Positions 358-52,570 of a stretch of 64,000 nt of DNA are shown in pieces. The stretch is from IMG/VR virus record IMGVR_UViG_3300045988_155182; one strand, given 5' to 3'. The position numbers and the translations under genes are program-made. This stretch comes from a virus (lineage: Duplodnaviria > Heunggongvirae > Uroviricota > Caudoviricetes). Numbering within the stretch: position 1 is the stretch's first letter; every line of letters starts with the position of its first letter. The notes under the pieces are model-generated. The model saw only the letters and a program-made list of their open reading frames with translations. It was not told where the DNA came from and did not search any database.

Positions 358-675
358 GTATTCCTCCTGATGGCCGTGATGTAGGAAGGCCATCAATCTC
401 CTCTGTTCAAACTGAGTTTTCGACTCAAAAATTACTTTAAAAGGCTATAGCCCATTACGTGTGCATTATCAAATTGTGTACGGCATAACACCGTACTTGT
501 AATATAGAGGTCATTGTTACTTTTTTCAACAGACAAATACAAGCTATGATTGCCAATTGTTAATCACAACCTACCATTTAACCTTTACACCGCAGCCGTA
601 GGCATTTAGGCTATATCACATATAAGAAAACAAGTTGTTTCAGACGATAATTATATACGCAAAGGGAACTCTCCA

Positions 676-1344
676 ATGACCAAGATCTTTGTGGTTGGCG
701 GCACAAAGGGCGGGCCTGGCAAATCCACCGTTGCCCAGCAAATTGCCGTTTGCCTGAAAGTCAAAAAGAAGAAGAAGGTTTATATTACCGATATAGATAT
801 TCAGCGCACGACAACGAGCTGGTGTGAAGACCGTCGACAGAACGAAGACCTTGAGCTGATTCCTTTTGCATACGTTCAGGATGACATCATTAAGCACCTA
901 AAATCGCTTCAGGGTAGAGCTGAGTTTGTAGTGGTAGATGCTGGTGGCTTCGACTCCGAAATTCAGCGACAAGCGATGCTGATGGCCGACGTTATCATTA
1001 TCCCGCTTCGTCCTAAGCGTCGTGATTTGAAATCTCTGCGTGATATCGATCCTATTATCGACAATGTTCGTAATGTAAACGATAAAGTGAAGGTCCGCGC
1101 GGTCATGAACCAGTGTCCGGCTTTGCCATCACAAGTGTCTCGCATTCTGGCGGCTAAAGAGATTGTTGAGACGTTTGGCATCGAGTCTGCGCCAGTCAAT
1201 CTATATAACCGCAACGTCTATGATGATGCGGAAGAGTCTGGTCGTTCTATCTTTGAAATGACCGGTAGCGAGCGCGACAAAAAGGCGGAAGCCGAGTTTG
1301 AAGAATTTGTAGATTATCTGTTGAGTCTGGAGGAAAAAGAATAA
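676..1344 (+). CDS. parA: ParA/Soj-family partition ATPase (small type Ib)
   Basis: Deviant Walker A KGGPGKST near the N-terminus (VVGGTKGGPGKSTVAQ); 222 aa; followed by a translationally coupled small gene. Confidence 0.85.
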   Translation: MTKIFVVGGTKGGPGKSTVAQQIAVCLKVKKKKKVYITDIDIQRTTTSWCEDRRQNEDLELIPFAYVQDDIIKHLKSLQGRAEFVVVDAGGFDSEIQRQAMLMADVIIIPLRPKRRDLKSLRDIDPIIDNVRNVNDKVKVRAVMNQCPALPSQVSRILAAKEIVETFGIESAPVNLYNRNVYDDAEESGRSIFEMTGSERDKKAEAEFEEFVDYLLSLEEKE

Positions 1345-1703
1345 TGTCCATGAAAATGGGTGACCTAGCAAAGCGCAAAGAGCCTGATGCACCGGCTAAG
1401 AACACAACTCCTTTGCGCCAACCAGTCAGACCACAGGGACGCCCGACTCGTGGCAAAGAGAAAATTAAAAGCCGCACAATGTCACTGGAGGACGAATACT
1501 TCGAACTGCTGGAGATGATGAAGTTCATCCCTCGCTTCGAGAAGTTCACTCGTTCTGACGTGATTCGTGCTGCTATTTTCCATCTTGCGGAGAAGACACC
1601 GCAGGAAATCGAGGACATCGTGAAACTTAACGAGGCGATCACCGCTGCCGATGTCACGATGCGTACCGATGAAATCAAACGCGAGTTGATGAAGAAAGGT
1701 TAA
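1344..1703 (+). CDS. Small ParG-like RHH DNA-binding partner of ParA (putative centromere-binding protein)
   Basis: Start overlaps the parA stop (TAATG); basic disordered N-terminus and an RHH-like C-terminal segment (FTRSDVIRAAIFHLAEK). Confidence 0.45.
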   Translation: MSMKMGDLAKRKEPDAPAKNTTPLRQPVRPQGRPTRGKEKIKSRTMSLEDEYFELLEMMKFIPRFEKFTRSDVIRAAIFHLAEKTPQEIEDIVKLNEAITAADVTMRTDEIKRELMKKG

Positions 1704-1710
1704 TTTTATT

Positions 1711-1735
1711 GAGGTGCTGCTTGGCACCTCTTTCT
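1711..1735 (+). terminator. Hairpin terminator after the par operon
   Basis: gaggtgctgc/ttggcacctc inverted repeat followed by tttct. Confidence 0.45.
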
Positions 1736-1747
1736 ATAGGTTCCCTA

Positions 1748-2467
1748 ATGCTCTACAAATATATTGGAAGTGAAGATTCGCAAAAAGTGTTACGTAACCT
1801 CAAACGGTTTGTAGAGGACGGCACTATCTCTGCTAGCGCACCTTCTTCATTCAACGACCCATCAGAGTTCAAAGTTTCGATAACGATGGGAGGTACAGAA
1901 GTGGAGCGCCGGAAACACTTTGAAGACAATGGATGTAAGGATTTTTCCTTTGAAGACTGGGATGCTGTAGCTCCTGAAGCTGCAAAATCGTTGGCTGTGG
2001 ATTTGCGGAAAGAATCATTAGGGGCTTTTGGTGTGGTGTGCTTGTCACCAAACGAAGATAACATCTTGATGTGGTCACATTACTCAGTGTCGCATAAAGG
2101 TTTCTGCATAGGCTTTGATGATGATTTTGTTACCTCTATTGAGGGGTATCACAGCTTTGATAATGTGAAATATATACCTTCTGTTCCCGTGTTCGATGAA
2201 GTTACAGATGAGTTTAAGGTACTTTTTGATAAGCTCTTTTTCTACAAGCACGAATGCTGGAAATATGAGGAAGAACAAAGGGTTATTACTAAAAAAATAG
2301 GCGCTCAGGCATTTGATAAGAAATATATTAGAGAGATCATTCTTGGACATAACGTTTCTCCTGAAGTAGAAGAATATGCCCGGACACAGCTAGACACGAG
2401 CATCGAGGTTTACAAAATGAGTACACCTGATGATGGTTATCTTCTTGTCAAAGAAAAGCTGAAGTAG
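1748..2467 (+). CDS. Hypothetical protein, possibly DUF2971-like; AT-rich cargo
   Basis: ATG at 1748 lies after the terminator hairpin (track start 1709 is TTG inside the hairpin); motif LMWSHYSVSHKGFCIGF recalls the DUF2971 signature; visibly lower GC than neighbours. Confidence 0.4.
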   Translation: MLYKYIGSEDSQKVLRNLKRFVEDGTISASAPSSFNDPSEFKVSITMGGTEVERRKHFEDNGCKDFSFEDWDAVAPEAAKSLAVDLRKESLGAFGVVCLSPNEDNILMWSHYSVSHKGFCIGFDDDFVTSIEGYHSFDNVKYIPSVPVFDEVTDEFKVLFDKLFFYKHECWKYEEEQRVITKKIGAQAFDKKYIREIILGHNVSPEVEEYARTQLDTSIEVYKMSTPDDGYLLVKEKLK

Positions 2468-2533
2468 CTCCAGACTTTCCTCAAATGATTATGTTGGGCG
2501 CTTTTCTTATTGAACTGGTTAGTGAGGCTAATA

Positions 2534-3791: not shown

Positions 3792-3903
3792 CTATGCCAA
3801 CTTCCCAGACACATTCCCTTCCGTTTCCACTTCCAAAAACTGCCACCAGTCGCTATCATCCGCTCATTGCAATAAGTAAGTAACTACCTATCTGGTGAGC
3901 CAC

Positions 3904-4644: not shown

Positions 4645-4687
4645 CTAATACTAGAAAACAATTTGTTTAAAAAACAAAGGAAAGCAC

Positions 4688-6028
4688 ATGACCGAACTTT
4701 GCCATACAGGACGCGGGCTGTCCGAAGAGTTTGATGAAGATTTTCAGAACAGATTGACGGCCTATTTTTGTCGTGATCACGAGTTTCTTACTCGTGCTGG
4801 AGATCTGGTTGTACCTAGCCAATTTGCCAATGCGGCCAATGCCATATTGGTTAATATGGTTTCGGGCTATTACCGTATGTACAAGAGCGCGCCCTCTTCA
4901 TCTGCGATTCTGGATATGCTTAAGCGTGCGAAACGCGATAAGACTATCCGTGAGGAACTATTCGCCGATGTTGTTGCTGCGTTTAAGCGCATCCTTGCAG
5001 AAAAATTGTCTGATACCTCGTACATGGTTGACCAGGTATCAACCTTCGCAAAAAGCGTAGCGTTTGATGATGCTCTGATTAAGGCTGCTGAACTGAAAGA
5101 GAAGGGCGACTTTCAGGGGGCGATGGCAATCATGGCCAAGGTTCAGCAGATTGGATCGAACGAAGCGACCGGAATCTATGACTACTACACCTCCGCAAGT
5201 GAGCGATTGAAAGCGCGTGAATATGAGGCTTCAGAGGAGTATGTGCCAAACAGCATTACAACTGGACTCCCTCTGCTCGATAGGTTGCTGTACCAAAAAG
5301 GCTGGGCGAAGCGTGAAATGGTGCTCTTCATGGGGTTCGCTAAATCCGGTAAATCGACCGCAATGGGTGAGTTTTCCATAAACGCAACGCTTGCTGGCTA
5401 CAATGTTCTGTATCTCTCGCTGGAGGTTCACACCAACATTTTGTCCGACCGCTTTGATGCAAGATTGTCGGAGACGGAAATGTCCAAGCTGGTGGAACGG
5501 CGCGATGAAGTTCATCGTAAGTTGGCAGAGTTGGGAGCCACTAAGGGGATTGGTAGTTTGTGGGTTGTTGAGCGTCCGTCAGGAAGTATGTCACCTGCAG
5601 ATCTGGACCGTATGCTTAACAGTATGAAAGCCAATGGCATGGTGCCTGACATGGTTGTTGTCGACTACGCAGATTTGATGCGTGCCAGTTATGACCTTCG
5701 TGATGATCGCGCCAATATTCGTAGTATCTACACCGATTTACGTGCTCTTTATGACAAGCATAACGTTGCTGGGATCACGGCATCGCAGACAAACCGTGAA
5801 GGTGGCGCGTCAGAAGTTGCCACAATGATGCACGCCGCCGATAACATCGAAAAAGTACGTATTGCTGACCTGGTAATAACGATCAACAAAACCGAAGAAG
5901 AAGAAGCGAAAGGAGAGGCTCGTCTCTACTTTGCTGGTTCACGTAACCAGCAGGGTGGGATCAGCATTCGCGTTAAACAAAACCTCGAACAAATGCGTTT
6001 CATTGAGCGAATCTTAGACGTTACCTAA
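4688..6028 (+). CDS. Replicative DNA helicase, DnaB/gp41 family
   Basis: Walker A GFAKSGKST, RecA-fold C-terminal domain with VVVDYADLM; conserved AGGAAAGCACATG start context. Confidence 0.8.
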   Translation: MTELCHTGRGLSEEFDEDFQNRLTAYFCRDHEFLTRAGDLVVPSQFANAANAILVNMVSGYYRMYKSAPSSSAILDMLKRAKRDKTIREELFADVVAAFKRILAEKLSDTSYMVDQVSTFAKSVAFDDALIKAAELKEKGDFQGAMAIMAKVQQIGSNEATGIYDYYTSASERLKAREYEASEEYVPNSITTGLPLLDRLLYQKGWAKREMVLFMGFAKSGKSTAMGEFSINATLAGYNVLYLSLEVHTNILSDRFDARLSETEMSKLVERRDEVHRKLAELGATKGIGSLWVVERPSGSMSPADLDRMLNSMKANGMVPDMVVVDYADLMRASYDLRDDRANIRSIYTDLRALYDKHNVAGITASQTNREGGASEVATMMHAADNIEKVRIADLVITINKTEEEEAKGEARLYFAGSRNQQGGISIRVKQNLEQMRFIERILDVT

Positions 6029-6058: not shown

Positions 6059-6109
6059 GATTCATTTGTGAAACAACTTTTCTTTTGCCAAACCACAAAA
6101 GAAAAACAC

Positions 6110-7288
6110 ATGAGCCTTTATGTTATATCAACATTTAGGTTGGTCACAATATTGCCTGTTAAAAGTGGAATTATCGTGAGCGAGCTGAAAGAGCTAATTG
6201 CCGAATTAGATTTTGAACAATGGTTGGATACTGAAGGTATCGTTTATCGACGTGGAGGCGTGAGTGCTCGCGGTCGTGAAGTGAATATCAAGGAATGTCC
6301 GGTATGCGGCAGCTCCAACTGGAAGGTATATTTCAATCTGACCAGTGGCGTCGGCAAATGCTTTGCTGGTGATCATCCCGAAGAGATTCAGTTCAATAAG
6401 CTGGTCTTCCTCAAGCACTACAGCGGCAAATCACGACGACAGTTCGAGGAATATGTGCAGAACGCCCTTCTTTCCCAGGGGTGGGCACCAAAGAAAGAAG
6501 AGATAGTGCTTGCAAGCACAGTCGAGTTAGAGGGACCACTTGCACTCCCTCGTCATTACGAACTTCCTATAGATGGCCGTCTTCCAGACTATCTGGTTGA
6601 ACGAAACATATCGCCTGAAATGGCAAAGTATTTTGACCTACGATACTGCGTCGAAGGTAAGCACGCTTATGTAGATCCGTATACAGATCAGGTTAAAGGA
6701 CAGATATTCGATATGCGAATACTGATACCGGTTTACGATCTGGATGGGGTAATGAAGACATTTCAGGGACGAGACATTACCGGTACAGCAGAACGCCGCT
6801 ACCTCTTTCCTATGCAGCTTCCAGCTTCAGGTAAATTTCTCTACAACGGCCATAATGCAGTCGGCAAACAGACTGTAGTTGTCTGTGAGGGTGCGTTCGA
6901 TGTTATGGGGGTCAAACGAGCTATTTTCGACGAAGAAACATTACGTGATTACGTGGAGCCAATAGGAACGTTCGGGATGCATCTATCTGGCAACACCACT
7001 CAGGATGCAGAAGATCAGTTGGGCGCGTTCCTGACGCTCAAAGCGCGTGGATTACGTAATGTGATCATGATGTGGGATAGTGAAAAGCAAGCTATACGTA
7101 ATACGATGGCCGCAGCCAGGCGACTGACCAGTATTGGTCTTAATGTCAAAGTGGCGTGTTTGGGCGAGGAAGGACTCGACCCGGGCGATGCAACGCCAGA
7201 GCAAATCATCAAAGCCTATTATCGGGCAAAACCGTATACCAAGCAGTTGGAGTTACAAAGCAAGGTTTTGGGCATTAAGGCTCTATGA
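6110..7288 (+). CDS. DNA primase (zinc-ribbon plus TOPRIM)
   Basis: CPVCGSSNW...CFAGDH zinc-binding motif and a TOPRIM-like VVVCEGAFDVMG; start set at the ATG at 6110 that carries the conserved aaaaacacATG context (track start 6038 is GTG inside the upstream hairpin). Confidence 0.75.
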   Translation: MSLYVISTFRLVTILPVKSGIIVSELKELIAELDFEQWLDTEGIVYRRGGVSARGREVNIKECPVCGSSNWKVYFNLTSGVGKCFAGDHPEEIQFNKLVFLKHYSGKSRRQFEEYVQNALLSQGWAPKKEEIVLASTVELEGPLALPRHYELPIDGRLPDYLVERNISPEMAKYFDLRYCVEGKHAYVDPYTDQVKGQIFDMRILIPVYDLDGVMKTFQGRDITGTAERRYLFPMQLPASGKFLYNGHNAVGKQTVVVCEGAFDVMGVKRAIFDEETLRDYVEPIGTFGMHLSGNTTQDAEDQLGAFLTLKARGLRNVIMMWDSEKQAIRNTMAAARRLTSIGLNVKVACLGEEGLDPGDATPEQIIKAYYRAKPYTKQLELQSKVLGIKAL

Positions 7289-7366
7289 TAACAATCACCT
7301 TTAAAATAAGTAGATGATTACTTATCTTTCTGTGAGAATACTTTCATCTGTTAGCTAGGAGTTGGT

Positions 7367-8681: not shown

Positions 8682-10000
8682 AAAAGTTGATCGCACTTAA
8701 GCATAAGCTGGACGAAATGAAAGCTATGGGAACCAATGCAAAAAAAGAGGCATTGGCCAACATGGATGACTTCGAGCAAAGCATGGTTTCATTGATGCTC
8801 AACCCTTTCATCCGTTTTGGGGTAAAGAAATACAAAGTGGCAGAGCCGCTTAGTGAGTCCGTCCCAAGTGACGAAAAAGCCATTGATATACTGAATAAGC
8901 TGGCCTCTCGCGAGCTGACGGGGAACGCAGCAATAGCTGCTGTTGAGTCTATCGTGGCGTCAATGTGCGCCGATGGGCAGGACGTGTTCCGTCGTTTCCT
9001 CTTAAAAGATCCGAAAGCTGGCGTTGGGATTAGCCTATGCAACAAGGTTTTTGAAAATCCCATTCCGAAATTTGAGGTGCAGCTGGCGTCACCGTATAAA
9101 GAAAAAGGCGACAAATACCCCTTCAAGCCAAATCCTAAAGCCAAATGGCCGATGATTGGCAGCCTTAAGCTCGATGGTTTGCGAGTAATTTGTGAGGTTA
9201 TTGTTGACGAGGAAGAGGTGAACTTCCTTTCTCGTACTGGTAATCCAATCACGTCTCTCGATCACCTAAAGCCAGCCATGCTCGAATTAGGCAAACTTTC
9301 AGGCCACAAACACATCTTCTTCGATGGTGAAGGAACAGCCGGTTCATTTAACCAGTCCGTATCTGCATTGCGCAAAAAGAACGTGCAGGCAATTGGCGCT
9401 ATTTATCATGTTTTCGACTTCTTCCTACCGGAATGGCGGGCACAGGCTAAATCCAAAGAGTATGCAAAGACAGGTATAAAGCTGAAAGAGCGCCTGGCTA
9501 TGCTCGTGGCGTTGTTCAAAAACGATCGCAGTGAAGGCTACGCACAAGACATTCACCTGCATCCGTTCTACATCATCCATAGCCACGAAGACTTCATCGA
9601 ACGCTTCATGAAACGCCTGGACGATAACGAAGAAGGGGAGATGGGCAAAGATCCGAACTCTGTTTACGAGTTTAAACGTACCCGCAGCTGGTGGAAGTTA
9701 AAAGACGAAGATTCAGAAGATGGTGAAATTATCGATTTTGAGCCTGGCGACCCGGACTCTGGTTTTGCCAACACGCTTGGAAAAATTGTTATTCGTCTTG
9801 AAAACGGCGTCATCGTTCGTGCGAGTGGCATTAAGCATAAATATCTGGACGAGATCTGGAACAACAAAGAGAAGTACCGTGGTCGTATTGTCGAGGTTCA
9901 TTGTCACGAGAAAACACCTGATGGCAGCTTACGCCACCCACGACTGAAATGGCCGCGTTGCTTACGCGATACCGAAGATCGAATCGGAGATAAAGAATGA
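8678..10000 (+). CDS. ATP-dependent DNA ligase
   Basis: Adenylation motif I KLDGLR (GSLKLDGLRVICEV); 440 aa. Confidence 0.7.
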   Translation: MKKLIALKHKLDEMKAMGTNAKKEALANMDDFEQSMVSLMLNPFIRFGVKKYKVAEPLSESVPSDEKAIDILNKLASRELTGNAAIAAVESIVASMCADGQDVFRRFLLKDPKAGVGISLCNKVFENPIPKFEVQLASPYKEKGDKYPFKPNPKAKWPMIGSLKLDGLRVICEVIVDEEEVNFLSRTGNPITSLDHLKPAMLELGKLSGHKHIFFDGEGTAGSFNQSVSALRKKNVQAIGAIYHVFDFFLPEWRAQAKSKEYAKTGIKLKERLAMLVALFKNDRSEGYAQDIHLHPFYIIHSHEDFIERFMKRLDDNEEGEMGKDPNSVYEFKRTRSWWKLKDEDSEDGEIIDFEPGDPDSGFANTLGKIVIRLENGVIVRASGIKHKYLDEIWNNKEKYRGRIVEVHCHEKTPDGSLRHPRLKWPRCLRDTEDRIGDKE

Positions 10001-10212
10001 TCGTATTAAGTAAAAGGGAGAAAGAAACGCTTCATGAAATCAGTAAGTGGCCGGAGTTCCCTGAGTACTGGAAGCCTAAAACGCGAGCTAAGTTAGAGCG
10101 TTTAGGGTTGGTTGCAAACGTTTCTGAAACGTGGTGCTCGGCCAACTACCAGTTAACTGATAAAGGGAAAGTATTGCTACAGCAATTAGTAGAATCAGGA
10201 GTGTTAAAATGA
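9997..10212 (+). CDS. Hypothetical small protein
   Basis: 71 aa; start overlaps the ligase stop (ATGA). Confidence 0.3.
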   Translation: MIVLSKREKETLHEISKWPEFPEYWKPKTRAKLERLGLVANVSETWCSANYQLTDKGKVLLQQLVESGVLK

Positions 10213-10649: not shown

Positions 10650-11426
10650 ATTACAATGATAAGTATTTACTTACTTATCTTTTATGTATAAGATGACTTT
10701 GTTTTCGTTGAGACGCGACTGTTTGAACTTAAATACAAGTGCAAACGAAGAAGTCTATCTGGCAGTAGCCTAATAAGCCAAACACCAGCGAGGTCAGTTT
10801 CCAGCCTCGTTACCGAAATGGGATACACTGAGCGAGTGTGATTACAGAACGCAGGAGGGAACATGAATGTTCCCTCCGATGAAGTAACAGAATGGGCGGT
10901 TGGTATATTTTCAACTCCATATGACTCCCGGATTCTTAGCCACTGACCGCCCATCCTGTTACGTCATTTTGTTCAATTATGTCGTTTATACTGGGTTAAA
11001 AAGCGGCGACGTAGCCCGGCTGGTATGGTTAGCCAGCACACAACGTTGAGGCCATTACATTTTTATCAATTCTAAGGTTCTATTCACAGAGATACCGGCG
11101 AGCGTTGATATGTAACATGTTGGGCAAACATTCAATCGGAGTAGTGGCCTCAACGTTGTGAAGACAGGATTGTTGTGTAGGTTTAACCACTGTTGCCATT
11201 GGTGCCTGTTTTCACAACAAATGATTCCATACATCACATTGTATAAATTACAAAGTAGGTGCTGTCCTCAGAAACATCATCTACTTAAAGAGTTTGCCTT
11301 CTACTATTGAGCGAAGTCGAAAGCGTCTGGCACTAACGAAAAGTGCAAGTAGCGGTGCGTTTCCTGGCAGAAACTAAACCGTCGCGATTGGCACTGTTGA
11401 GTAATGAATACAGGCAGTGCTGAATT
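10650..11426. other. ORF-poor structured region upstream of the tRNA cluster (candidate ncRNA or processing region)
   Basis: No convincing ORF in ~780 bp; several long inverted repeats including a 20-bp pair at 11037-11056 / 11141-11160. Confidence 0.3.
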
Positions 11427-12977: not shown

Positions 12978-13150
12978 TAAAACCTCTATAAAATGTACAT
13001 TTCAAGGCAATCCTTACTGTAATCTATTGTCGTAATCACTTCAATTGTTTACTAGTCAATCAATAAGTTACTACATACTTATCAAAAAAATCTGTTTGTA
13101 GTATAGTCTGATATGTTCGAATCAATATTTATAAAGGTATTTGTTAAGTT

Positions 13151-13606: not shown

Positions 13607-14710
13607 ATGAAAAATAGCTTTGACAGAGCACGCGCTGCGGAGAACACCTCAAAAGAGGCGATAGAGTATCTCGAAAGAGCATCTCAAATGCAGGCCGTTA
13701 TGATCTCCCAGGTCAGCAATGACATGAGATTCTCGGACGCATTCATGTTATTCACTCGCTTATCTCTGCTGATAACCAGACGTCGGCCAGAGATCGCTGT
13801 TCATTGTATTTTGATACATGTTTTGCCGCACATTGCCGATGTAAAAGTAAGTGACATTAATAGGTTCATGGTGAACCAACTGGTCAACCCACTAATACTG
13901 GATGGCAAAATTGTTATGGGCCGCCGCGTTTTCTCTCTGATGAAGCAGTTCCTTAGCTGGTGCGCCTTCCAGGGGATGATAGACGTGTCACCGTTGAACG
14001 ATATGTCACTTAACAAAGTTGCCGGTGGCGCAAAGCCCACACCTCGCGAGCGGAAGCTGACCGACGCAGAGGTATGGGTGTTCTGGAATATATGGGACTA
14101 CTTCAATGTGTGTGCTGGTACAAAATGGGCGGCCAGGCTATGTCTTGTATCCGCAAGACGACCTGACGAAGTACTGCGGGCTAAAAAAAGTGAGTTCAAT
14201 CTTAAGCGTGGGGTTTGGAATCAAGGCAAGAGGAACAAATCTGCCCGTGAGCATTCTCTGCCTTTAAGCTCATTAATGCGCACTTGTATTGAAGAGTTGT
14301 TCGAATATGGTAAAGACAGCCAGTGGCTCGTGCCTTCGAATAAAAAAATCGGGAAAGACCTTCCTATGTCTAAAGTGGCAATAGCCCAGGCATTACGTCG
14401 TATTCTGGAACGACCAGAACTGATGGAGCTTGAGCCATTTACACCCCGAGATTTGCGCCGTACTGCGCGTAGTTACTTCCCAGCATTAGGCATAAGCCAG
14501 GAGGTATCACGTAAAATCATGAACCACAGTCTTGAGGGGATAGATCGGGTCTACGACCGGCACGATTATATGGACGAGATGCGAGACGCCTTAGAAAGTT
14601 TCTCGACGTACATCGCATCAATCGTAGAGCAACCGGATTTAGACGAAATTGACCACAAATTTAAGGGAGATCGTCTATCAACAGAGCTTATTCGTGTAAA
14701 TTTTTCATAG
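13607..14710 (+). CDS. Tyrosine recombinase (integrase or Cre-like resolvase family), divergent
   Basis: C-terminal catalytic region with RRPDEV..., TPRDLRRTARSYF (R in place of the usual H of HxxR) and NHSLEGIDRVYDRHDY (box II with the tyrosine); N-terminal third not recognisable. Confidence 0.6.
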   Translation: MKNSFDRARAAENTSKEAIEYLERASQMQAVMISQVSNDMRFSDAFMLFTRLSLLITRRRPEIAVHCILIHVLPHIADVKVSDINRFMVNQLVNPLILDGKIVMGRRVFSLMKQFLSWCAFQGMIDVSPLNDMSLNKVAGGAKPTPRERKLTDAEVWVFWNIWDYFNVCAGTKWAARLCLVSARRPDEVLRAKKSEFNLKRGVWNQGKRNKSAREHSLPLSSLMRTCIEELFEYGKDSQWLVPSNKKIGKDLPMSKVAIAQALRRILERPELMELEPFTPRDLRRTARSYFPALGISQEVSRKIMNHSLEGIDRVYDRHDYMDEMRDALESFSTYIASIVEQPDLDEIDHKFKGDRLSTELIRVNFS

Positions 14711-15091
14711 AGACTTTATGGCCTCAACAACCTTTTGTGATGCGCCTTTCTCTTTACCGAATCGCTCGTTATATGCAGCAAGAACCTGTTTTTCGTCCTC
14801 GTTAAGAGGAGCAGTGCCTTCTTTGTATAAAAATGCTGCGAGTTCGGGTTGGCGTTCTTCCAGCACCATCATCATAAGACGACTTGGCTCAATGCCCAGT
14901 GCCAGCGCCAGCGGACGAACCTTATCGATAGGCAAAGGAATTTTGCCGCTTTTAATTAAAGAAAGGTTGTTGGCGTTTTTATACCCAATTGTTTTGGCTA
15001 TCTGGGCCTGGCTCATAGGTGAGGATTCAATCAACCCTGCGATAAAAGCAGCGTAGCGACTTTCTATAAATTCAATCTTGTTATCAGACAT
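14705..15091 (-). CDS. HTH (XRE/Cro-CI-like) transcriptional regulator
   Basis: N-terminal helix-turn-helix MSQAQIAKTIGYKNANNLSLIKSG; convergent with and overlapping the 3' end of the recombinase gene. Confidence 0.6.
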   Translation of the reverse strand: MSDNKIEFIESRYAAFIAGLIESSPMSQAQIAKTIGYKNANNLSLIKSGKIPLPIDKVRPLALALGIEPSRLMMMVLEERQPELAAFLYKEGTAPLNEDEKQVLAAYNERFGKEKGASQKVVEAIKSL

Positions 15092-15342
15092 GGTTACAAC
15101 CTTTGCGCGTTCAATTCTCTCTGGTAAGTGCTTACCGATATTACATCAAAGGTTAGGGTTGTAAAGCTATTATCATTTTTTTCGATAGGCACTTAAAAGA
15201 CCGGTTAAAGGCCATTGCACGGAGAAAAATTAGCCCAAAACAGGTAAGAAAATCAACTTGCATATGATATGAATGTATTCAGTATTGATACAAATTTTAG
15301 TAGTATTCCTTACCATAGTATAAGTTAGAATGGATTGATTGA

Positions 15343-15555
15343 ATGAACACCACTATTTCCAGCCTAATCGCTCTTGAGATCGGACACGTACAGAAATTAG
15401 CTGATGAGTGTGTAGCTGACATCCTCACCGATCTACCGAATGAGCAGATTCAGGTTGGTGTGAATGACACAACTGGATTTATATTCGAACTTAACAACAA
15501 ACGCTTCACGCTTCTCAATACCGGCTCCGGGTCTTTAGCCGTCAGAATCTGTTAA
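15343..15555 (+). CDS. Hypothetical small protein
   Basis: 70 aa ORF with ATG start between the regulator and the vWA gene. Confidence 0.25.
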   Translation: MNTTISSLIALEIGHVQKLADECVADILTDLPNEQIQVGVNDTTGFIFELNNKRFTLLNTGSGSLAVRIC

Positions 15556-15653
15556 CCCCTCTTCTCCCTGCGCGAATGGCTTAGTTCCCTGTTCGCGCAG
15601 TGCTACATTAAACACACTAGTAAATAATTTGTTTTCATAACAAAGGATTAGCC

Positions 15654-17762: not shown

Positions 17763-17857
17763 TTAAAACAGCCTTAATGATAAGTAACTACTTATCATAG
17801 TTAATGGTATATTTATATAAGAACTTGAACGCTCATTAGAGAACAAAGGAAAAGCGC

Positions 17858-29811: not shown

Positions 29812-29838
29812 AGGCGTCCAGTTGGACGCCTTTTTTAT
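29812..29838 (+). terminator. Rho-independent terminator
   Basis: aggcgtcc agtt ggacgcc followed by ttttttat. Confidence 0.65.
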
Positions 29839-29886
29839 CGCAATTATCTTATTAAGAAAACAATTTGTTTAAAGGGTTAAGAAAAT

Positions 29887-33115: not shown

Positions 33116-33149
33116 CGATCATGTCTGAAGGCAGATGGCACAACGGTTT

Positions 33150-33285: not shown

Positions 33286-33392
33286 GGACATAAGAATCAT
33301 GACTAAGAGTAGAGTTTAAAATATATCTATGTATATCAGTATGTTAATGAAGAATTAAGTCATTAAGTTATCCATAAAAGACAATGTGCTCT

Positions 33393-33610
33393 ACTCTCTA
33401 CAGTGGATATATACAGCTCTCCAGAGTGGTTGTTTTACTCTTCATAGCGGTTATTCAGCTCTCTACAGAGGTTTCTTTGCTCTCCATAGTGGATGGCAAC
33501 ACCCTTTCAGACCAGTAACCGCAACGGCTAGAGGCGATCGGGGATCTCTTTGGATCTTCTATTTGATCTTACTTGGGATCTCTTATTTGGATCTATCCAG
33601 TGGATAACTG
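33393..33610. repeat. Second origin-like module: five iterons, five phased GATC sites and a DnaA-box-like site
   Basis: Iterons at 33393-33496 (ctctctacagtggatat, ctctccatagtggatgg); GATC at 33543, 33553, 33565, 33577, 33590 at 10-13 bp spacing; agtggataa at 33598-33606. Confidence 0.65.
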
Positions 33611-34339: not shown

Positions 34340-34593
34340 CCCTCCAGATCGTATATTGGCGTAGATAGAATCTACGCCCCCTCAAAATAGCTCTCATAGC
34401 GTTCTACAGTGATCCTGTCTTATTTTTAGTCATACAGACAAGCAAAGTTGCGCCACGATAAATAGGTATATACTTACTTATAAATTTTGTATATTAAGGC
34501 GCTCGTTTCATTCCTAACATACCGTTATGCATAGTTGTTTACCTCCTCATTGCTCTTAGAATTTGTATCAAAATAACCACAAAGGAAAAACAC

Positions 34594-35679
34594 ATGACTT
34601 TGCCATACGGCGTCATTTCTGACTGCCACTACCACAAATGGGATGCGTTCTCCACGACGAACGCTGAGGGGCTTAACTCCAGACTTGAAATACAGTTGGA
34701 AGCAACGAAAGAAGCAGCCATCGCCATGAAGAAGGCCGGTTGTAAGTACATGTTGGTTGCCGGTGATACATTTCACGTCCGAGGAACTGTGTCCCCTTCT
34801 GTTTTGCATTACGTAACTGAAACGTACAAGTGGATTATCAACGAGCTTGATCTGACAGTAGTAATGCTGGCCGGTAATCACGATCTTGAAACCAACGATT
34901 CAGTATATAGCGCCAACGCAGCAGCATCGCTGAGTTCTATCGGCGTGGTAATCGTATGTGGCAAGCGCCCACACTCAATAAAAATTGGCGATGTGACTGT
35001 CCACCTGATTAGCTGGCGTAACAATCATGCGGAGCTTATCAGCGATCTGAAAGCATTACGTAAGAGCGTAGAAGGTGATAATCATGACGTTGTTATCCAT
35101 ACATCCATTAACAAAGCCATTCCAACAATGCCTGACGTCGGTATCGATGCGCAGGAGTTAAAGGATATCGGCTTTCGTCTCGTGCTTAGTGGGCATTACC
35201 ACAACCACAAAGAGGTCATTCCTGGAGTTATCAGTGTCGGTGCACTGACTCATCAAAATTGGGGAGATGTTGGATCTCTGGCTGGCTACATGATCGTAAA
35301 CCCGGACGGCAGTTTCAGTCACTACGAAACCAGTGCGCCTAAATTCATTAACCTGGAAGATGATGTTGCTGATGACCAAATTCGCGGCAACTACGTGCGT
35401 TTCCGCGCCGTAATTGAGAACGATGAAGAAGGCATTAAGTACCAGAACATCCTCAAAACAATGGGTGCAAAAGGTGTCGTGTGCAACTTCATCCGTAAGT
35501 CATCAATGATGGAAGGTACAGCCAGCACAACTGAAACCAGCAAAATCGATAGCCTGGGAGAGTCGGTATCTGCTTATTGCAAGATTGTCCACGATACTGA
35601 CGGCGGATTTGATCTGAGCAAATTGGATATTTTGTGTCAGGAAATCCTCACCGAAGCGGAGAGTTCGGAGGCTGTGTGA
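34594..35679 (+). CDS. SbcD/Mre11/T4 gp47-like nuclease (calcineurin-like phosphoesterase)
   Basis: Phosphoesterase motifs DCHYH, GDTFHV, GNHDLE, SGHYHNH; conserved aaaaacacATG start. Confidence 0.75.
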   Translation: MTLPYGVISDCHYHKWDAFSTTNAEGLNSRLEIQLEATKEAAIAMKKAGCKYMLVAGDTFHVRGTVSPSVLHYVTETYKWIINELDLTVVMLAGNHDLETNDSVYSANAAASLSSIGVVIVCGKRPHSIKIGDVTVHLISWRNNHAELISDLKALRKSVEGDNHDVVIHTSINKAIPTMPDVGIDAQELKDIGFRLVLSGHYHNHKEVIPGVISVGALTHQNWGDVGSLAGYMIVNPDGSFSHYETSAPKFINLEDDVADDQIRGNYVRFRAVIENDEEGIKYQNILKTMGAKGVVCNFIRKSSMMEGTASTTETSKIDSLGESVSAYCKIVHDTDGGFDLSKLDILCQEILTEAESSEAV

Positions 35680-39137: not shown

Positions 39138-39171
39138 TTTCATTGATAGGTAAGTGCTTATCTATTAACAT

Positions 39172-39210: not shown

Positions 39211-41526
39211 ATGATAAGCATCGTAAAACGTAACGGCCAAACAGAGCCGTTATCCGAAGAAAAATACAACCGCGTCGTAATGTATGGCGTAGAAGGCATT
39301 CGTGGTGTAAGCGCATCCGCTGTAGCAATGGGAGCTGCGGCCAGCATTTTTGATGGGATTACCACCAGCCAGTTGCATGAGGCTTTGGTTAAATCTGCCG
39401 CTGATTTGATCTCACCAGAAGCACCAAATTACTCACAGGTGGCTGCCCGCCTGAACATTTTTAAAATCCGCAAAGATGCCTTCGGTCGTTACGACTATCC
39501 GAACTTCTACCAACACATTGTCAAGAACGTTAACAAGGGCGTTTATGACAAGGATTTGCTGACACATTATTCGTTTGAAGAGATCGAAGAACTCGGCAAT
39601 TACATTAAGCCGAAACGTGACGATCTTTTTGGCTATGCAGCTACGGTGCAGTTGCAAAGCAAATACCTCGTTCAAAACCGTGTTACTGGTGAGATTCATG
39701 AGGGGCCGCAACATATCTATATGCTGGTAGGCATGTGTCTGTTCCAGAATTGGGAAGACGACTGCGCTGGCAAAACACGTATGGAGATGGTCAAAGGTTT
39801 CTATGACGTTACAAGTACGTTCAAACTGTCTCTGCCCACACCAATCATGGCCGGCGTCCGTACTCCAACCCGTCAGTTCTCCAGTTGTGTGCTGATTGAG
39901 TCTGGCGATAGTCTGAAAGGGATTAGTGCAGCTTCAGCCGCAATTATCGACTACGTTTCACGTCGTGCTGGAATTGGTATTGGTTTTGGCCGTATCCGTG
40001 CGCTGGGCAGCGAGATCCGCAATGGTGAAGCCACCCATACCGGAGTTATTCCATTCCTGAAGCATTTCCAGACGGCTGTTAAATCTTGTTCGCAAGGTGG
40101 TGTTCGTGGTGGCGCAGCAACAGCGTTTTACCCGATCTGGCATCTTGAAGTTGAAAGTCTGCTGGTGGTGAAAAATAACCGTGGTATTGATGAAAACCGC
40201 GTTCGCCATCTTGATTACGGCGTCATGAGTAACCGTCTAATGTACCGTCGACTCGTCAGAAGCGAGAACATCACTCTGTTCAGCCCGCATGATGTGCCTG
40301 ATATGTACGAAGCCTTCTTCACAGACCAGGAGCTGTTTGAAAAGCTGTACCATAAATACGAAGCCGATGATTCAATTCGCAAGAAGTCAGTACCTGCCAT
40401 TGAGCTGTTCTCATCTCTGATGCAGGAACGAGCGTCCACGGGCCGAATTTATATTGCGAACGTCGATCATATTAACGAGCATGGCGCTTTCATTCCTGCT
40501 CTTGCACCTGTTCGCCAGTCAAACCTGTGCATGGAGATCACTCTACCCACTCGTCCACTGGCATTTACCGACGACCCGAACGGTGAGATCGCGCTATGCA
40601 CTTTATCCGCTTTTAACCTCGGAGCCATCCGTTCACTGGAGTCTCTTAAAGAGGTGGCGTTCTATGCCGTTGCTGCACTGGATTCGTTACTGGATTATCA
40701 AGACTATCCGATGGAGGCAGCCGAAGTGCCTGCCAAAGCTCGTCGTAGCTTGGGAATTGGTGTAACCAACTTTGCTTATTACCTGGCAAAGAATGGCGTT
40801 CGTTATTCTGATACCGCTGGCAATAAACTGGTGCATGAAACGTTCGAAGCTATCCAGTATTACCTTCTTGATGCCAGCTGCCGACTTGCTGAAGCAAAAG
40901 GTGAGTGTGACTGGTTTGAGCAGACCAAGTACGCAATTGGTCAGTTGCCGATCGACCATTACCGTTCTTCATTAGACGAAAGTGGCGAAACCAACTTTGA
41001 GTTAAAGATGCCGTGGGAAGAACTGCGTGAACGTATTGCAAAATACGGCCTTCGCAACTCCACACTGACGGCACAAATGCCATGCGAGACTTCCAGCCAG
41101 ATCACTAATTCCACCAACGGCATCGAACCGCCTCGTGGCCCGGTGTCGGTGAAATCTTCTAAGGACGGCATCGTTAAGATGGTCGTGCCTGAGTTTGAAA
41201 AACTGAAGGAACAGTATGAATACCTGTGGGATATGCCGGACAACCGCGGCTATCTGACAAAGGTGGCGATCATCCAGAAGTTCTTTGACCAGGCTATTTC
41301 AGCCAATACCAACTATGACCCTTCTCGCTTTGAAGGCGATAAAGTCCCAATGATGACGCTACTGTCAGATTTGCTTCTCGCCTACAAGATGGGAGTTAAA
41401 ACGCTTTACTACCACAACACCAGAGATGGGGCAGGAAAGCGTGATGACGACGAACCGCAGAATCCACTGACGCAAGCTGTAGCCGTCGAGCCAGAAGATG
41501 AGTGCGACGGAGCCTGCAAAATCTGA
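39211..41526 (+). CDS. nrdA: Ribonucleotide reductase class Ia alpha subunit
   Basis: 771 aa; active-site region NLCMEITLP and C-terminal Cys pair (CDGACKI); adjacent nrdB. Confidence 0.9.
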   Translation: MISIVKRNGQTEPLSEEKYNRVVMYGVEGIRGVSASAVAMGAAASIFDGITTSQLHEALVKSAADLISPEAPNYSQVAARLNIFKIRKDAFGRYDYPNFYQHIVKNVNKGVYDKDLLTHYSFEEIEELGNYIKPKRDDLFGYAATVQLQSKYLVQNRVTGEIHEGPQHIYMLVGMCLFQNWEDDCAGKTRMEMVKGFYDVTSTFKLSLPTPIMAGVRTPTRQFSSCVLIESGDSLKGISAASAAIIDYVSRRAGIGIGFGRIRALGSEIRNGEATHTGVIPFLKHFQTAVKSCSQGGVRGGAATAFYPIWHLEVESLLVVKNNRGIDENRVRHLDYGVMSNRLMYRRLVRSENITLFSPHDVPDMYEAFFTDQELFEKLYHKYEADDSIRKKSVPAIELFSSLMQERASTGRIYIANVDHINEHGAFIPALAPVRQSNLCMEITLPTRPLAFTDDPNGEIALCTLSAFNLGAIRSLESLKEVAFYAVAALDSLLDYQDYPMEAAEVPAKARRSLGIGVTNFAYYLAKNGVRYSDTAGNKLVHETFEAIQYYLLDASCRLAEAKGECDWFEQTKYAIGQLPIDHYRSSLDESGETNFELKMPWEELRERIAKYGLRNSTLTAQMPCETSSQITNSTNGIEPPRGPVSVKSSKDGIVKMVVPEFEKLKEQYEYLWDMPDNRGYLTKVAIIQKFFDQAISANTNYDPSRFEGDKVPMMTLLSDLLLAYKMGVKTLYYHNTRDGAGKRDDDEPQNPLTQAVAVEPEDECDGACKI

Positions 41527-41632
41527 CATATGGTGGGGGATATCCCCACCTTCTCTTTGATTTGTAAGCCTTGTTTAAACACATAAGATAACAACTTGTT
41601 TAAACGCACCAAAAAAGAAAAAGGAAAAACAC

Positions 41633-42775
41633 ATGTCATATTCAACGTTCCGTTTGGGTGCTAATGATGCAACCAAAGAGCCTATGTTCCTCGGACAATC
41701 TGTCAACGTGGCACGTTACGATCAGCAAAAATACCGTGATTTTGAAAAGTTGATTGAACGTCAATTGTCTTTCTTCTGGCGGCCGGAAGAAGTTGATATT
41801 TCGAGCGATCGTATCGACTTCAACACGAAGCTGCGGGACCACGAACGTCACATTTTTCTGAGCAATCTCCGTTATCAAACGTTACTCGATTCAGTTCAGG
41901 GACGTAGTCCAAATGCAACGCTGCTGCCGCTTATCTCTATTCCTGAACTGGAAACGTGGGTTGAAACGTGGTCTTTCTCTGAGACTATCCATAGCCGCAG
42001 CTACACCCACATTATTCGTGGCATGGTGGACGATCCGAGCATTGTTTTTGACGGTATTGTTACGGATGAAGAAATCATCAACCGAGCGATCAGTATCTCT
42101 GCTGAATATGACAGGCTTTATGGGATGACCTGCGAGCGCCAGTCGTTAGGTGAGAAGGAGTTTGAACGTCTGTACGTAAATGAATATGGCTGGGAGCCAT
42201 ACCCTTTGCACCGTCAGCTTTTCCGCACGTTGGTGTCCATTAATGCGCTTGAGGCGATCCGTTTCTATGTAAGTTTTGCATGTACGTTTGCCTTTGGCGA
42301 ACGGAAGTTGCTTGAGGGTAACACCAAAATTATGCGCTTTATTGCCCGTGATGAAGCTCTGCATTGCGAAGGAACTGAACGCATGATCCGCTTCATGCGT
42401 ACCGGTCGCGAAGGTTTATTGTGGAAAGAGATTGCTGCTGATGAAGAAAACGTCATTTACGACACCATGAAATCAGTCGCCGAACAAGAAATGAACTGGG
42501 CAGACTATCTCTTCAAAGACGGTTCGATGATTGGTTTAAACGCGGATATTCTCAAAACCTATGTAAAATACCGCACCAATCTGGCTATGAATCGTCTTGG
42601 CCTGAAGGCTTTATTTCCAGAGGTTACCACCGATCCGCTGGTCTGGATGAACAAGTGGTTGTTAACCGACACACTGCAAATTGCACCACAAGAGGCAGAG
42701 CAAAGCACATATCTGGTAGGTCAGATCGATTCTACCGTGGATAAGGCTTCTCTAAGCCAGTTTGCTGACCTGTAA
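41633..42775 (+). CDS. nrdB: Ribonucleotide reductase class Ia beta subunit
   Basis: 380 aa; near-colinear with E. coli NrdB ([53 protein letters not shown]). Confidence 0.9.
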
Positions 42776-43818: not shown

Positions 43819-43893
43819 CTGTCTGGTCTTGTTCTCTCAATAAATGTAAACTCACGCAATGAATAAGTGGTTACTTATCTTTGTGAGGTTTTT

Positions 43894-48545: not shown

Positions 48546-48728
48546 CGTTCCCCTACTGAAAATAAAGCCCATAGAGAGCTTTATAGTGCTGGGCAAGCCA
48601 ATCACATACCCAGCACCACAAAAACGCGCCAGAGAGCTTCTCGTTTGCATTTCTGGCGTGTTTTATTTGATTGCCAGACATAAAATCAAATGCAAAAATA
48701 GGTATTTACTTACCTATCGAGAAAGAAG

Positions 48729-49738: not shown

Positions 49739-49744
49739 TAGATA

Positions 49745-50322: not shown

Positions 50323-50913
50323 ATGACGACGAAGACACCAGCCCGATCGCAAGAAAAAACTCGCAAAAAAGCCAAAAACAAAAATTCTCCCCGCACCAAT
50401 TCCACAACGCCTGTCGTAGAGTTCAATCCCCAGCTTAAAACCGTGAAAATCTTCAGTGATGGCTCTTGCCTTAAAAATCCGGGTGGCCCGGGCGGTTACG
50501 GTATAGTTCTCCAGTATCGTGGTGAGGAACGCGAGTTCTCAGATGGTTTTCATAGCACCACCAATAACCGCATGGAGATGATGGGGGCACTTATCGGGCT
50601 GGAGCGTTTGAAATATCCATGCAACGTTATTTTGCACTCTGATAGCCAGTATCTGAAAAACGGCATGACACAGTGGATGAAATGGTGGAAACGCAATGGA
50701 TGGGTGACTTCTGACAAAAAACCGGTAAAGAATGTTGATCTGTGGAAGCGTCTGGATGAGGCCGCAAGTCGACATAATGTTCGCTGGAAGTGGGTTAAAG
50801 GCCACGCCGGGCATCGTGAAAATGAAATATGTGATCGACTCGCGAAGATCGCAGCTTTTTCCGCAGCAGATATGCCTCACAAGAAAGATATTGGTTTTGT
50901 TTATAACAAATAG
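50323..50913 (+). CDS. rnhA: Ribonuclease HI
   Basis: [18 protein letters not shown]...[10 protein letters not shown]...[21 protein letters not shown]...[13 protein letters not shown]...KGHAGH closely matches E. coli RNase HI; start at the ATG with AGGAG RBS (track start 50272 is GTG). Confidence 0.85.
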
Positions 50914-51061
50914 TAAGTAAGTGTTTACCTATCATTTTAAATCATGTATCTTATCGGCGTCAGGATGACAATGTGTCGGTAAGACACAGTTCCAGGATGG
51001 AACGAGAAAGGCGGCTGGCAATCGCCAGCCGCAACTCTTTCTGACACTGGATGGAGTCCAC

Positions 51062-51556: not shown

Positions 51557-51565
51557 GGCGGTTGT

Positions 51566-51754
51566 ATGAACTGGTTTTCAAATCACTTTGGAAAAATTTG
51601 GCTGGCAATTCTTGCCCTCATGGCCGCCGGTTGGGTATCGAACATTATAAAACTTGTTTGCTCTGGCGATCTCCAGTTTCAGGCTGGTATGACCTTGGCT
51701 CGTGTTGTTGGGATTTTTGTTTTTCCAGTTGGTTCGGTACTTGGTTATTTCTGA
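51566..51754 (+). CDS. Small membrane protein
   Basis: 62 aa, hydrophobic. Confidence 0.3.
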   Translation: MNWFSNHFGKIWLAILALMAAGWVSNIIKLVCSGDLQFQAGMTLARVVGIFVFPVGSVLGYF

Positions 51755-51847
51755 CGGCTGTTAGTGCATATGCATTGACCATCTCTGCGTAAGCAATTTA
51801 TGTAATTAGAAAACAACTTGTTTTGACAAATAATAAAAGGAAAACAC

Positions 51848-52273
51848 ATGTTAGGTTTCTTCAAAAAGAAAACTCGTAAAGCTGTTATCGAAGTCAAAAA
51901 AATGGAGAACCGTGATGCGGTTGAGGCCACCGTGTGGGGCGCGTACATGATCTCCTATGCCGACGGCACATGTGACGCAAAAGAAATTGCCATTCTTGAG
52001 AAGACAATTGCAGCTCTGCCTGCGTTTTCTCCGTTTGCTGGTGAAATTGCCCAAATGAGCGCCAATATCCGTGCTCGTTACGAAGCGTCCCCTCGTTCTG
52101 CTAATGCACAGGCTATTCGTGAGCTGTCTGATATTGCGGGTACTCCAGAGGCGGTCGATGTTCTGTGTCTGTGCCTTGATATTGCCGATCAGGACGGCAT
52201 TGGTGAACAAGAAGAGCAGGCACTTAAAAAGATCGCCCAGGCGCTTCAGTTGTCACTGGATGCTTATCTCTAA
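51848..52273 (+). CDS. TerB-like domain protein
   Basis: YADGTCDAKEIAILEKTIAALP and later EQEEQALKKIAQALQL resemble the tellurite-resistance TerB fold. Confidence 0.45.
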   Translation: MLGFFKKKTRKAVIEVKKMENRDAVEATVWGAYMISYADGTCDAKEIAILEKTIAALPAFSPFAGEIAQMSANIRARYEASPRSANAQAIRELSDIAGTPEAVDVLCLCLDIADQDGIGEQEEQALKKIAQALQLSLDAYL

Positions 52274-52431
52274 TGCTTGAGAGATTCCGGCTTGTGATCG
52301 TCATTGCTCTTCTGGTGATGGCGGTGTTGGTGGATTTTACGGGAAAGATGATGTCTGTCATTTCTGATGGCGTCCTCATTGGTCTGGCGATCTACTTCGC
52401 TTATCCGCTAGTCCGTAAAGCAACGTGTTAA
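52273..52431 (+). CDS. Small membrane protein (52 aa, below the ORF-track cutoff)
   Basis: ATG overlaps the upstream stop (TAATG); MLERFRLVIVIALLVMAVLV...; terminator follows. Confidence 0.25.
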   Translation: MLERFRLVIVIALLVMAVLVDFTGKMMSVISDGVLIGLAIYFAYPLVRKATC

Positions 52432-52433
52432 TG

Positions 52434-52464
52434 ACAAGGGCCATTTGGCCCTTGTGTTTCGTTG
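52434..52464 (+). terminator. Hairpin terminator
   Basis: acaagggcc attt ggcccttgt followed by gtttcgtt. Confidence 0.5.
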
Positions 52465-52570
52465 ACCGAAATAGAGAGTTTGCACCTTTACGTTTAGCTT
52501 GCTCCCCTTTTATGCCACATCACAATAAAGCCAATAAGAAAACAACTTGTTTAAGCATTAGGAAAAACAC

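Follow-up and report, generated by a model that had tools for sequence, protein, structure and literature searches.

Motif-1 of SSU5-like phage-plasmids: a conserved promoter-embedded palindrome and candidate operator ahead of partition, replication and nucleotide-metabolism genes

A 13-bp palindrome, AAACAA-N-TTGTTT (hereafter motif-1), recurs upstream of genes in IMGVR_UViG_3300045988_155182, a 64,000-nucleotide stretch of Caudoviricetes DNA from IMG/VR which, at its whole length, we call the window. To the initial annotation the palindrome looked like a promoter element of its own, or else an operator bound by a dimeric regulator, through which partition, replication and nucleotide metabolism are controlled together. 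The question raised by this locus is what kind of site motif-1 is, what reads it and with what effect on the genes behind it. The first 20 kb of the window are 97.5% identical to Escherichia phage Cyrano (OV696614.1, the pLF82 phage-plasmid) and about 80% identical to Salmonella phage SSU5; by these matches the window is part of an SSU5/pHCM2-like phage-plasmid of E. coli, spanning, by annotation, parA, then replication, recombination and nucleotide-metabolism genes, and a MinD-like gene.

The core, AAACAANTTGTTT, occurs five times exactly in the window where 0.01 occurrences would be expected (628-640, 4656-4668, 29858-29870, 51811-51823 and 52540-52552), and none of 100 shuffles reached five. 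The six copies originally listed are these five and a copy with one mismatch, TAACAACTTGTTT, at 41589-41601. Two additional one-mismatch copies, at 15622-15634 and, inverted, at 57081-57093, bring the total to seven gene-proximal copies and one inverted copy, eight in all. A 27-nt weight matrix trained on seven window sites and scanned along both strands (128 kb) scores the eight sites at 20-33 and everything else in the window at 12.3 or less; the scores are circular for the seven training sites, whereas the score gap and the eighth site are independent. With their conserved flanks, the copies are as follows.

624..641, + strand: motif-1 copy AAGA-AAACAAGTTGTTT-C, exact core, score 30.9; 35 nt before the parA ATG (676)
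4652..4669, + strand: motif-1 copy, exact core, score 30.5; 19 nt before the ATG of a DnaB-like helicase gene (4688)
15618..15635, + strand: motif-1 copy AAATAATTTGTTT, one mismatch; upstream of a cobT-like (702 aa)/cobS-like/PolIII-alpha unit, gap 19 nt
29854..29871, + strand: motif-1 copy, exact core, score 28.3; 16 nt before ATG 29887 (141-aa protein)
41585..41602, + strand: motif-1 copy TAACAACTTGTTT; 31 nt before the nrdB ATG (41633)
51807..51824, + strand: motif-1 copy, exact core, score 29.8; 24 nt before a TciA-like gene (51848)
52536..52553, + strand: motif-1 copy, exact core, score 32.4; 18 nt before ATG 52571 (189-aa protein); intergenic in Cyrano
57077..57097, - strand: inverted, upstream-type motif-1 copy, minus-strand score 20.2; upstream of the gene at 57168

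None of the eight sites lies in coding DNA (seven by our own gene call and site 52540 by the Cyrano annotation), and only 12% of the window is non-coding. Every copy first listed precedes a + strand gene, and all seven gene-proximal sites fall within the 15-60 nt ahead of a + strand start, which as a zone make up 5% of the window (P about 1e-9). The enrichment, the score gap and the non-coding placement rule out chance or a coding-sequence repeat as the origin of motif-1. Two degenerate copies had also been proposed. The one near 6071 retains only the left half, which is conserved in SSU5 and in a Cronobacter plasmid, but it scores below site level; the one near 43776 has no counterpart in SSU5 and abuts a terminator hairpin, and we therefore attribute it to chance.

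Related elements share the motif. Cyrano carries 14-16 copies and SSU5 about 20, all intergenic, as are the eight in the window. Those of Cyrano comprise the seven window sites, a tandem pair ahead of terS and copies that precede five small genes at 93-98 kb; SSU5 shares these sites and adds others. At least 12 sites are present in the divergent Cronobacter plasmid (parA 68% identical) and six are kept in Y. pestis pMT1, while two Morganellaceae relatives (Moellerella and Providencia) have no motif-1 at the orthologous positions. Orthologous sites are conserved in Cyrano, SSU5, Cronobacter and pMT1 while their flanks diverge. The parA-upstream copy is present in Cyrano, SSU5 and Cronobacter, where it is among the top-scoring sites, the helicase-upstream copy is conserved in the same three, and the 15622 copy has orthologues at SSU5 42729, pMT1 2492 and Cronobacter 22859. 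Motif-1 is a real, strongly conserved, promoter-embedded cis-regulatory site of SSU5-like phage-plasmids. Its regulon is one of partition, replication, nucleotide-metabolism, early and packaging units, and beyond the genes first listed it takes in the cobT-like/PolIII operon, the terminase operon and a small-gene cluster outside the window.

What reads the site can be approached from its anatomy. The full conserved block is (c/t)TA(a/t)GA-AAACAA-N-TTGTTT-A, with the AGA side always upstream in the direction of the gene; the perfect palindrome of the initial annotation thus sits in an asymmetric block, TA(A/T)GA flanking it at the 5' end alone. Exact matches to AAGAAAACAANTTGTTTA in IMG/VR came to at least 120 loci, about 100 of them SSU5-like by blastn, and these loci together with Cyrano and SSU5 yielded 80 non-redundant sites (<70% flank identity). 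Across the 80 sites, the AAGA flank, the core arms and the trailing A hold 1.3-2.0 bits per position, the centre base is uniform (A 23, C 20, T 19, G 18), and deviations from the arm consensus are one-armed in 35 of 35 cases, with no compensated change. The leaders of the seven gene-proximal window sites fold no better than shuffles (-0.6 to -5.2 kcal/mol, z -0.9 to +1.0), and an Rfam search at the window sites matched no family. An RNA hairpin or a known RNA family is ruled out by the lack of an Rfam match, the fold z-scores and the lack of compensation. Because the changes are one-armed, the centre base is random and no RNA fold is seen, a protein probably reads motif-1 as double-stranded DNA through two half-sites.

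Such a protein could be supplied by the host, either an IHF-like nucleoid protein or an Enterobacteriaceae-specific regulator. The core is similar to the lambda H' site and to the consensus for IHF, WATCAANNNNTTR, and motif-1 is confined to plasmids of Enterobacteriaceae/Yersinia hosts and missing from the Morganellaceae relatives, as a host-factor site might be. However, AAACAANTTGTTT departs from WATCAANNNNTTR at two defining positions (A for T in ATCAA, and final T for R), and all 12 core positions are near-invariant, far beyond what IHF needs. We consider a host-factor site very improbable.

The placement of the sites bears on their function. The initial annotation had them at a fixed distance from start codons, which did not hold: from the end of the palindrome to the ATG the window copies measure, in order, 35, 19, 19, 16, 31, 24 and 18 nt, and over 57 non-redundant gene-proximal family sites the distance is 6-54 nt. 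In an alignment of the nrdA-nrdB spacer, motif-1 forms a conserved island, and both the motif and the sequence upstream of it still align despite a 25-bp indel, in one relative, between motif-1 and the start codon. Where an anchor can be recognised, it lies on the other side. In 30 of the 57 family sites a -10-like hexamer (GATAAT 16, TATTAT 9) stands upstream, its end 14-15 nt from the palindrome, a TG-extended -10 is found in 25 (for example TGAGATAAT and TGCGATAAT), and T at -14 is 88% conserved. In the window, the only TG-extended -10-like element is TGCTACATT, which precedes the 15618..15635 copy. Given these hexamers, we infer that transcription starts about 7 nt downstream of the hexamer, at a conserved CCA, in which case the palindrome is predicted to span about +8 to +20 with its centre near +14.

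Second motif-1 copies add a further constraint. They lie 51 bp or, at terS, 25 bp from the first, centre to centre, apart from one 105-bp case. The 51-bp modules (about 12 distinct sequences, which include many orthologues and come from roughly 4-5 promoters) have the form of a mirror image, CCTT-AAACAnnTTGTTT-TCT ... TTGA-GATAAT-AAC ... AAGA-AAACAAnTTGTTT-AAGG, with the AGA flanks pointing inward around the -10, an arrangement which makes sense only on duplex DNA. The window has single copies only. At its inverted site (57077..57097) the order is terminator hairpin, AAATAAATTGTTT, then TCTACCTTTT, -10-like AAAATA; the flanks of this copy are those of the upstream copies of paired modules, and it has orthologues at Cyrano 85830 and SSU5 85614, but no partner was found at +51. 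An inverted repeat, AGCACT-TGGT-AGTGCT (57120-57145), occupies the downstream-copy position at this upstream-copy-only promoter. Two other window sites directly follow intrinsic terminators, which leaves the genes behind them in need of a promoter at that very point.

29812..29831, + strand: intrinsic terminator, 27 nt upstream of motif-1 copy 29858
41532..41550, + strand: intrinsic terminator after nrdA, 39 nt upstream of the nrdB motif-1 copy 41589

The proposal of an operator or promoter element coordinating partition, replication and nucleotide metabolism is partly supported: it fits the dyad core with its unconstrained centre base and the intergenic, gene-oriented, conserved sites, some placed after terminators. 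It needs correcting in that the anchor is the -10-like hexamer (at half of the sites), the regulon is larger, and motif-1 represents one of two promoter classes, the other being taken up below.

The same location is open to a reading at the RNA level, in which motif-1 is an operator in the 5' untranslated region (UTR) for a translational repressor, such as the FljA-like CYRAN_114, that lowers translation and mRNA stability. Motif-1 sits between the predicted start site and the Shine-Dalgarno (SD) sequence, often abutting the latter as TTGTTTAAGGAG, and CYRAN_114 matches Pfam Flag1_repress (FljA) at E 1e-80 and has Hfq/LSM-like similarity. The FljA-like gene is present in four motif-bearing genomes (Cyrano, SSU5, pMT1, Cronobacter) and absent from two motif-less ones, and the fliC leader of Salmonella and Citrobacter, AACATCAAGTTGTAATTGATAAGGAAAAGATC-ATG, which is a target of FljA, shares CAAGTTGT beside its SD. 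This co-occurrence and the leader match keep an RNA-level reading alive, the mirrored DNA copies opposing it: the upstream copies 51 bp away lie outside the transcript. Moreover, dyad symmetry with a 1-nt spacer is useless in RNA, the leaders do not fold, and the spacing follows the -10-like hexamer, not the SD; the phyletic pattern amounts to one split, and the 7-8 nt shared with fliC came to attention post hoc. A tblastn search gave no homologue of the T4 RegA type, which is a weak negative. We judge an RNA operator improbable. The full-length FljA homologue (Pfam Flag1_repress, E 1e-80) lies outside the window on the minus strand of the Cyrano record at 100780-101301 (segment 22781-23302) and is absent from the Morganellaceae relatives; FljA is the phase-1 flagellin repressor, and its homologue could have phage leaders as targets or shut off fliC in the host.

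If motif-1 is read as DNA within a promoter, does its binder repress or activate? A transcriptome of the E. coli LF82 (Cyrano) lysogen is available as a supplementary table (PMC9928086), in which the genes directly behind motif-1 are at background, against a median of 9.8 normalised reads (terS 7.1, helicase 21, CYRAN_47 7.8, CYRAN_58 5.7, nrdB 12.9, CYRAN_85 7.0, CYRAN_87 7.1, CYRAN_101 7.5, CYRAN_105 12.8, CYRAN_106 12.2, CYRAN_110 6.7 and CYRAN_111 25.5). Genes with a near-consensus extended -10 are silent as well (7-25 normalised reads), and the sole exception among motif-1 units is the parA operon, at 50-89. In the macrophage RNA-seq columns of the same source (PMC9928086), changes of the motif-1 and motif-2 regulons overlap and do not separate. 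Since promoters with a TG-extended GATAAT are expected to be active unaided, their silence favours repression over missing activation.

We infer from these patterns that a protein binds motif-1 and represses, and our preferred reading, which we hold at about even probability, is that motif-1 is the operator of a plasmid-encoded repressor, built into one promoter class. Where the hexamer can be recognised, a dimer on the palindrome would occupy about +8 to +20 relative to the predicted start. Where promoters are strongest (TG-extended GATAAT without a -35), a second copy in mirror orientation, exactly 51 bp upstream and thus near -38, would place two sites around the -10, and a plasmid-encoded, sequence-specific protein, as one dimer or two, would block initiation or escape. 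In the plasmid-prophage state this binder would keep about 13-15 transcription units silent, including helicase/primase/ligase, cobT-like/PolIII, nrdB/thyX/DHFR, small early genes and terminase, and would autoregulate the parA operon.

Several observations weigh against repression. The lysogen would be just as silent with an activator missing as with a repressor bound. The hexamers that stand in the window where a -10 is expected, GGCTAT, CTAATT, CGCAAT, CTTGTT, AGCAAT and CACAAT, are weak and a simple sigma-70 consensus scan called no promoter at any window site, so motif-1 promoters could need an activator instead. The asymmetric flanks are left unexplained by a simple symmetric dimer, and SSU5 is lytic although it keeps all candidate binders except the cI-like repressor considered below.

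These points belong with an alternative in which motif-1 is a positive control element, marking a middle/late promoter class that needs a phage-encoded activator or specificity factor on the palindrome, its genes being silent in the lysogen since the factor is not made. Most window copies lack a good -10 and lack a -35, and motif-1 stands in front of replication, nucleotide-metabolism and terminase units, a placement shared with conserved middle/late promoter motifs of many phages. At a few Moellerella promoters the left half (TAAGAAAACAA) stands without the right arm, hinting at an older promoter element, and the lysogen silence is equally compatible. Yet if the -10 assignment holds, centres at +14 and -38 are where repressors typically bind, unlike activators (-41.5, -61.5), and about half of the family sites have a strong TG-extended -10 that should fire unaided but is silent. 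No sigma-like or known activator gene is annotated, and the parA operon bears motif-1 and is expressed in the lysogen. On balance an activator site appears rather unlikely.

For the preferred repressor, the locus behind the first copy offers a candidate.

676..1344, + strand: ParA-type partition ATPase, 222 aa (Cyrano annotation), first gene behind the 628 copy; NCBIfam ParA_partition match E 1.9e-33, under the curated cutoff
1344..1703, + strand: 119-aa protein, co-transcribed with parA; candidate motif-1 binder

The 119-aa protein encoded after parA is our leading candidate, though on its own less likely than not. It is expressed in the LF82 lysogen, its operon has a top-scoring motif-1 copy in every motif-bearing genome, and 736 of 797 plasmids encode it at 90% identity or more. 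A segment, I-SRTMS-EDE, with a predicted DNA-reading strand, and a helix, FTRSDVIRAAI, are invariant down to 48% identity; an AlphaFold2 model places helices at 48-61 and 70-82 (mean predicted local distance difference test score, pLDDT, 65), and there is a weak NCBIfam match, under cutoff, to the ribbon-helix-helix (RHH) regulator aCcr1 (E 2e-4). It is possibly an RHH centromere-binding protein. Upstream of parA in the Moellerella and Providencia relatives, which lack motif-1 elsewhere, TTGTTT and AAACAA hexamers occur in everted orientation, and the strand of the protein, KSRTVS, is almost unchanged there. Other results count against this candidate: Pfam, the PDB (phmmer, hmmsearch) and Foldseek gave nothing significant for an RHH fold, hhalign found no similarity to ParG, omega or CopG, the AACAA enrichment upstream of Moellerella parA is modest (top 1.2% of windows), and pMT1 keeps motif-1 sites without a homologue of the protein.

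Two other proteins were considered and are unlikely binders. The cI-like helix-turn-helix (HTH) repressor (14705-15091) is absent from SSU5, which keeps all sites, is only 56-66% conserved, and has a control region with GGTAAGTGCTTACC-type palindromes and no motif-1; the 71-aa winged-helix protein (9997-10212) is missing from the Cronobacter plasmid with its at least 12 sites.

The arrangement around the 628 copy resembles that of a type Ib partition locus, with motif-1 upstream of a small parA and the 119-aa gene, and it is the same in SSU5 and Cronobacter. Type Ib RHH centromere binders such as omega (pSM19035) and ParG (TP228) also repress promoters; they bind short half-sites with a periodicity of about 7 bp, inverted or everted, and autoregulate, and omega is a global repressor. 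As at the present parA locus, they are small proteins encoded after a small ParA. Their sites, however, are arrays of 4-12 repeats near the par operon, whereas motif-1 occurs as single or paired palindromes at many promoters, and near the window par genes no tandem repeat array was found, only the single palindrome upstream of parA. The plasmid-prophage N15 has four dispersed palindromic sopC sites in phage promoter regions, served by an F-type SopAB (type Ia) system. Like motif-1 these are palindromes scattered over promoter regions, and in N15 they link the partition proteins to phage gene control; unlike motif-1 they are four in number, against 15-20 here, many of which lie at a set distance from a -10-like element.

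N15 is the model for another reading, in which motif-1 is a dispersed centromere for the ParA/small-protein system with no primary role in transcription. A high-scoring copy stands before parA in every motif-bearing genome, and the par genes have no neighbouring repeat array from which a classical centromere could be made. A centromere, though, would not need placement relative to a -10 or gene orientation at more than 12 promoters, and pMT1 keeps the sites though it lacks this par system. We regard a purely centromeric role as highly improbable.

Parallels to an operator regulon come from RK2 and P1. In RK2 the KorB operator OB is TTTAGCSGCTAAA and the KorA operator GTTTAGCTAAAC. As with motif-1, a 13-bp 6-N-6 palindrome recurs at about a dozen plasmid promoters and coordinates replication, partition and other functions, and the regulator is tied to the partition system. 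KorA is reported to be a global repressor of the IncP plasmid RK2/RP4 (PMC2665229). In contrast to what is predicted for motif-1 (+14/-38, on a phage-plasmid), KorB is a ParB-type HTH protein acting from -39 or at a distance. The C1 repressor of P1 has more than 14 dispersed operators, among them that of the replicative helicase gene ban, in a plasmid-prophage. This resembles the many scattered promoter operators under one repressor proposed here, but C1 sites are 17 bp, asymmetric and bound by a monomer, and no C1 homologue appears in the annotation of this phage-plasmid. The counterpart of an immunity-repressor operator is more likely to be a second palindrome, motif-2, than motif-1.

Motif-2 reads ATARGTArnn.nnyTACYTAT, or in a 16-bp form ATAAGTAnnTACTTAT, and is found mostly in intergenic regions without motif-1. 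For its half-site, ATARGTA, 36 occurrences were counted where 10.3 would be expected. The window holds about 16 sites, and SSU5 about 30, some of them inside the late operon; window sites include the following.

3872-3891, 7306-7325, 10659-10678, 13063-13082, 17780-17795, 24724-24739, 25189-25208, 28713-28728: motif-2
30662-30681, 34462-34481, 39146-39165, 43863-43878, 48698-48717, 50913-50932, 55883-55902: motif-2

They are intergenic, usually just past the upstream stop codon, and three lie inside the spacer of predicted -35/-10 promoters. Along the genome motif-2 alternates with motif-1, which points to two interleaved promoter/operator classes. Of the two palindromes, motif-2 is the one that better suits the cI-like repressor and may be its operator. 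The repressor gene (14705-15091, - strand) stands beside an integrase gene and is divergent from a 70-aa gene, in a module that includes 15092-15342 and 15343-15555 (+ strand). Copies related to motif-2 (GGTAAGTGCTTACC) are found at 15123-15136, in the divergent region beside it, and the gene is expressed at 96 in the LF82 lysogen. In SSU5, reported to be virulent, tblastn found no match to the cI-like/integrase module, whose absence could explain the lytic behaviour of SSU5.

Combining these strands, the 119-aa ParA partner could be both a centromere binder and a global silencer of lytic genes, acting at about 15-20 sites (+14, -38) of lytic promoters, with motif-2 and the cI-like repressor as a second key. 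We put this forward as a speculative and, taken whole, rather unlikely extension. If true, the partition or copy state and the choice between plasmid and lytic life would be read through one protein, and the second, interleaved operator system (motif-2 and the cI-like repressor) would place every lytic unit under two-key control.

Phage-plasmids of the SSU5/pHCM2/pMT1 type are often met with in E. coli, Klebsiella, Salmonella and Yersinia from clinical sources, and two small proteins of SSU5-like elements each match about 800-865 plasmid records in PLSDB. These elements carry resistance genes (PMC9600943). A full-text literature search returned no motif-1 (four variants), no SSU5 operators or promoters and nothing on gene regulation in these phage-plasmids. 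Motif-1 provides a testable regulon map, with promoters, bases and spacing, and together with motif-2 suggests the wiring of a switch between plasmid life and lytic growth. It also serves as a simple sequence marker for the SSU5-like clade and corrects some annotated starts.

The starts concerned are those of CYRAN_105 and CYRAN_110, which overlap or precede motif-1 copies (Cyrano record 95805 and 97903; segment 17806 and 19904). Because the SSU5 orthologues start downstream of motif-1, the Cyrano calls are probably mistaken. A near-identical start context, (A)GGAAAAACAC-ATG, is found at 10 window genes against 0.8 expected (4679-4690, 6101-6112, 28752-28763, 30359-30370, 34585-34596, 41624-41635, 51839-51850, 52562-52573, 55936-55947 and 57159-57170). 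This shared context suggests that the primase starts at ATG 6110 and not at GTG 6038.

Between the terS start codon and the motif-1 pair upstream of it, spaced 25 bp, stands a terminator-like hairpin, AGAGCGC..GCGCTCT plus GTGTGTTTT (Cyrano segment 57-134, SSU5 segment 56-133). Its presence there hints that the late operon is also under antitermination control. Elsewhere in Cyrano (record about 94.4-95.6 kb, segment 16382-17632; SSU5 segment about 40500-41700), there is a half motif-1 (AAGAAAACAAC/A) with a conserved stretch, ATCAACGAAACGTCAACG, behind it; CYRAN_103 and CYRAN_104, annotated in this region, look spurious, and the region may be a non-coding RNA or an origin.

Two further features of the window lie apart from motif-1. 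The minus strand at 23071-23489 gives a full-length match to the Rfam cspA thermoregulator (187.6 bits, E 7e-50), comprising a cold-shock protein gene with its 5' UTR on the phage-plasmid. At 33039-33492, 21-bp iterons (3.7 and 4.6 copies) lie beside repA (31896-32951, minus strand) and constitute a plasmid replication origin.

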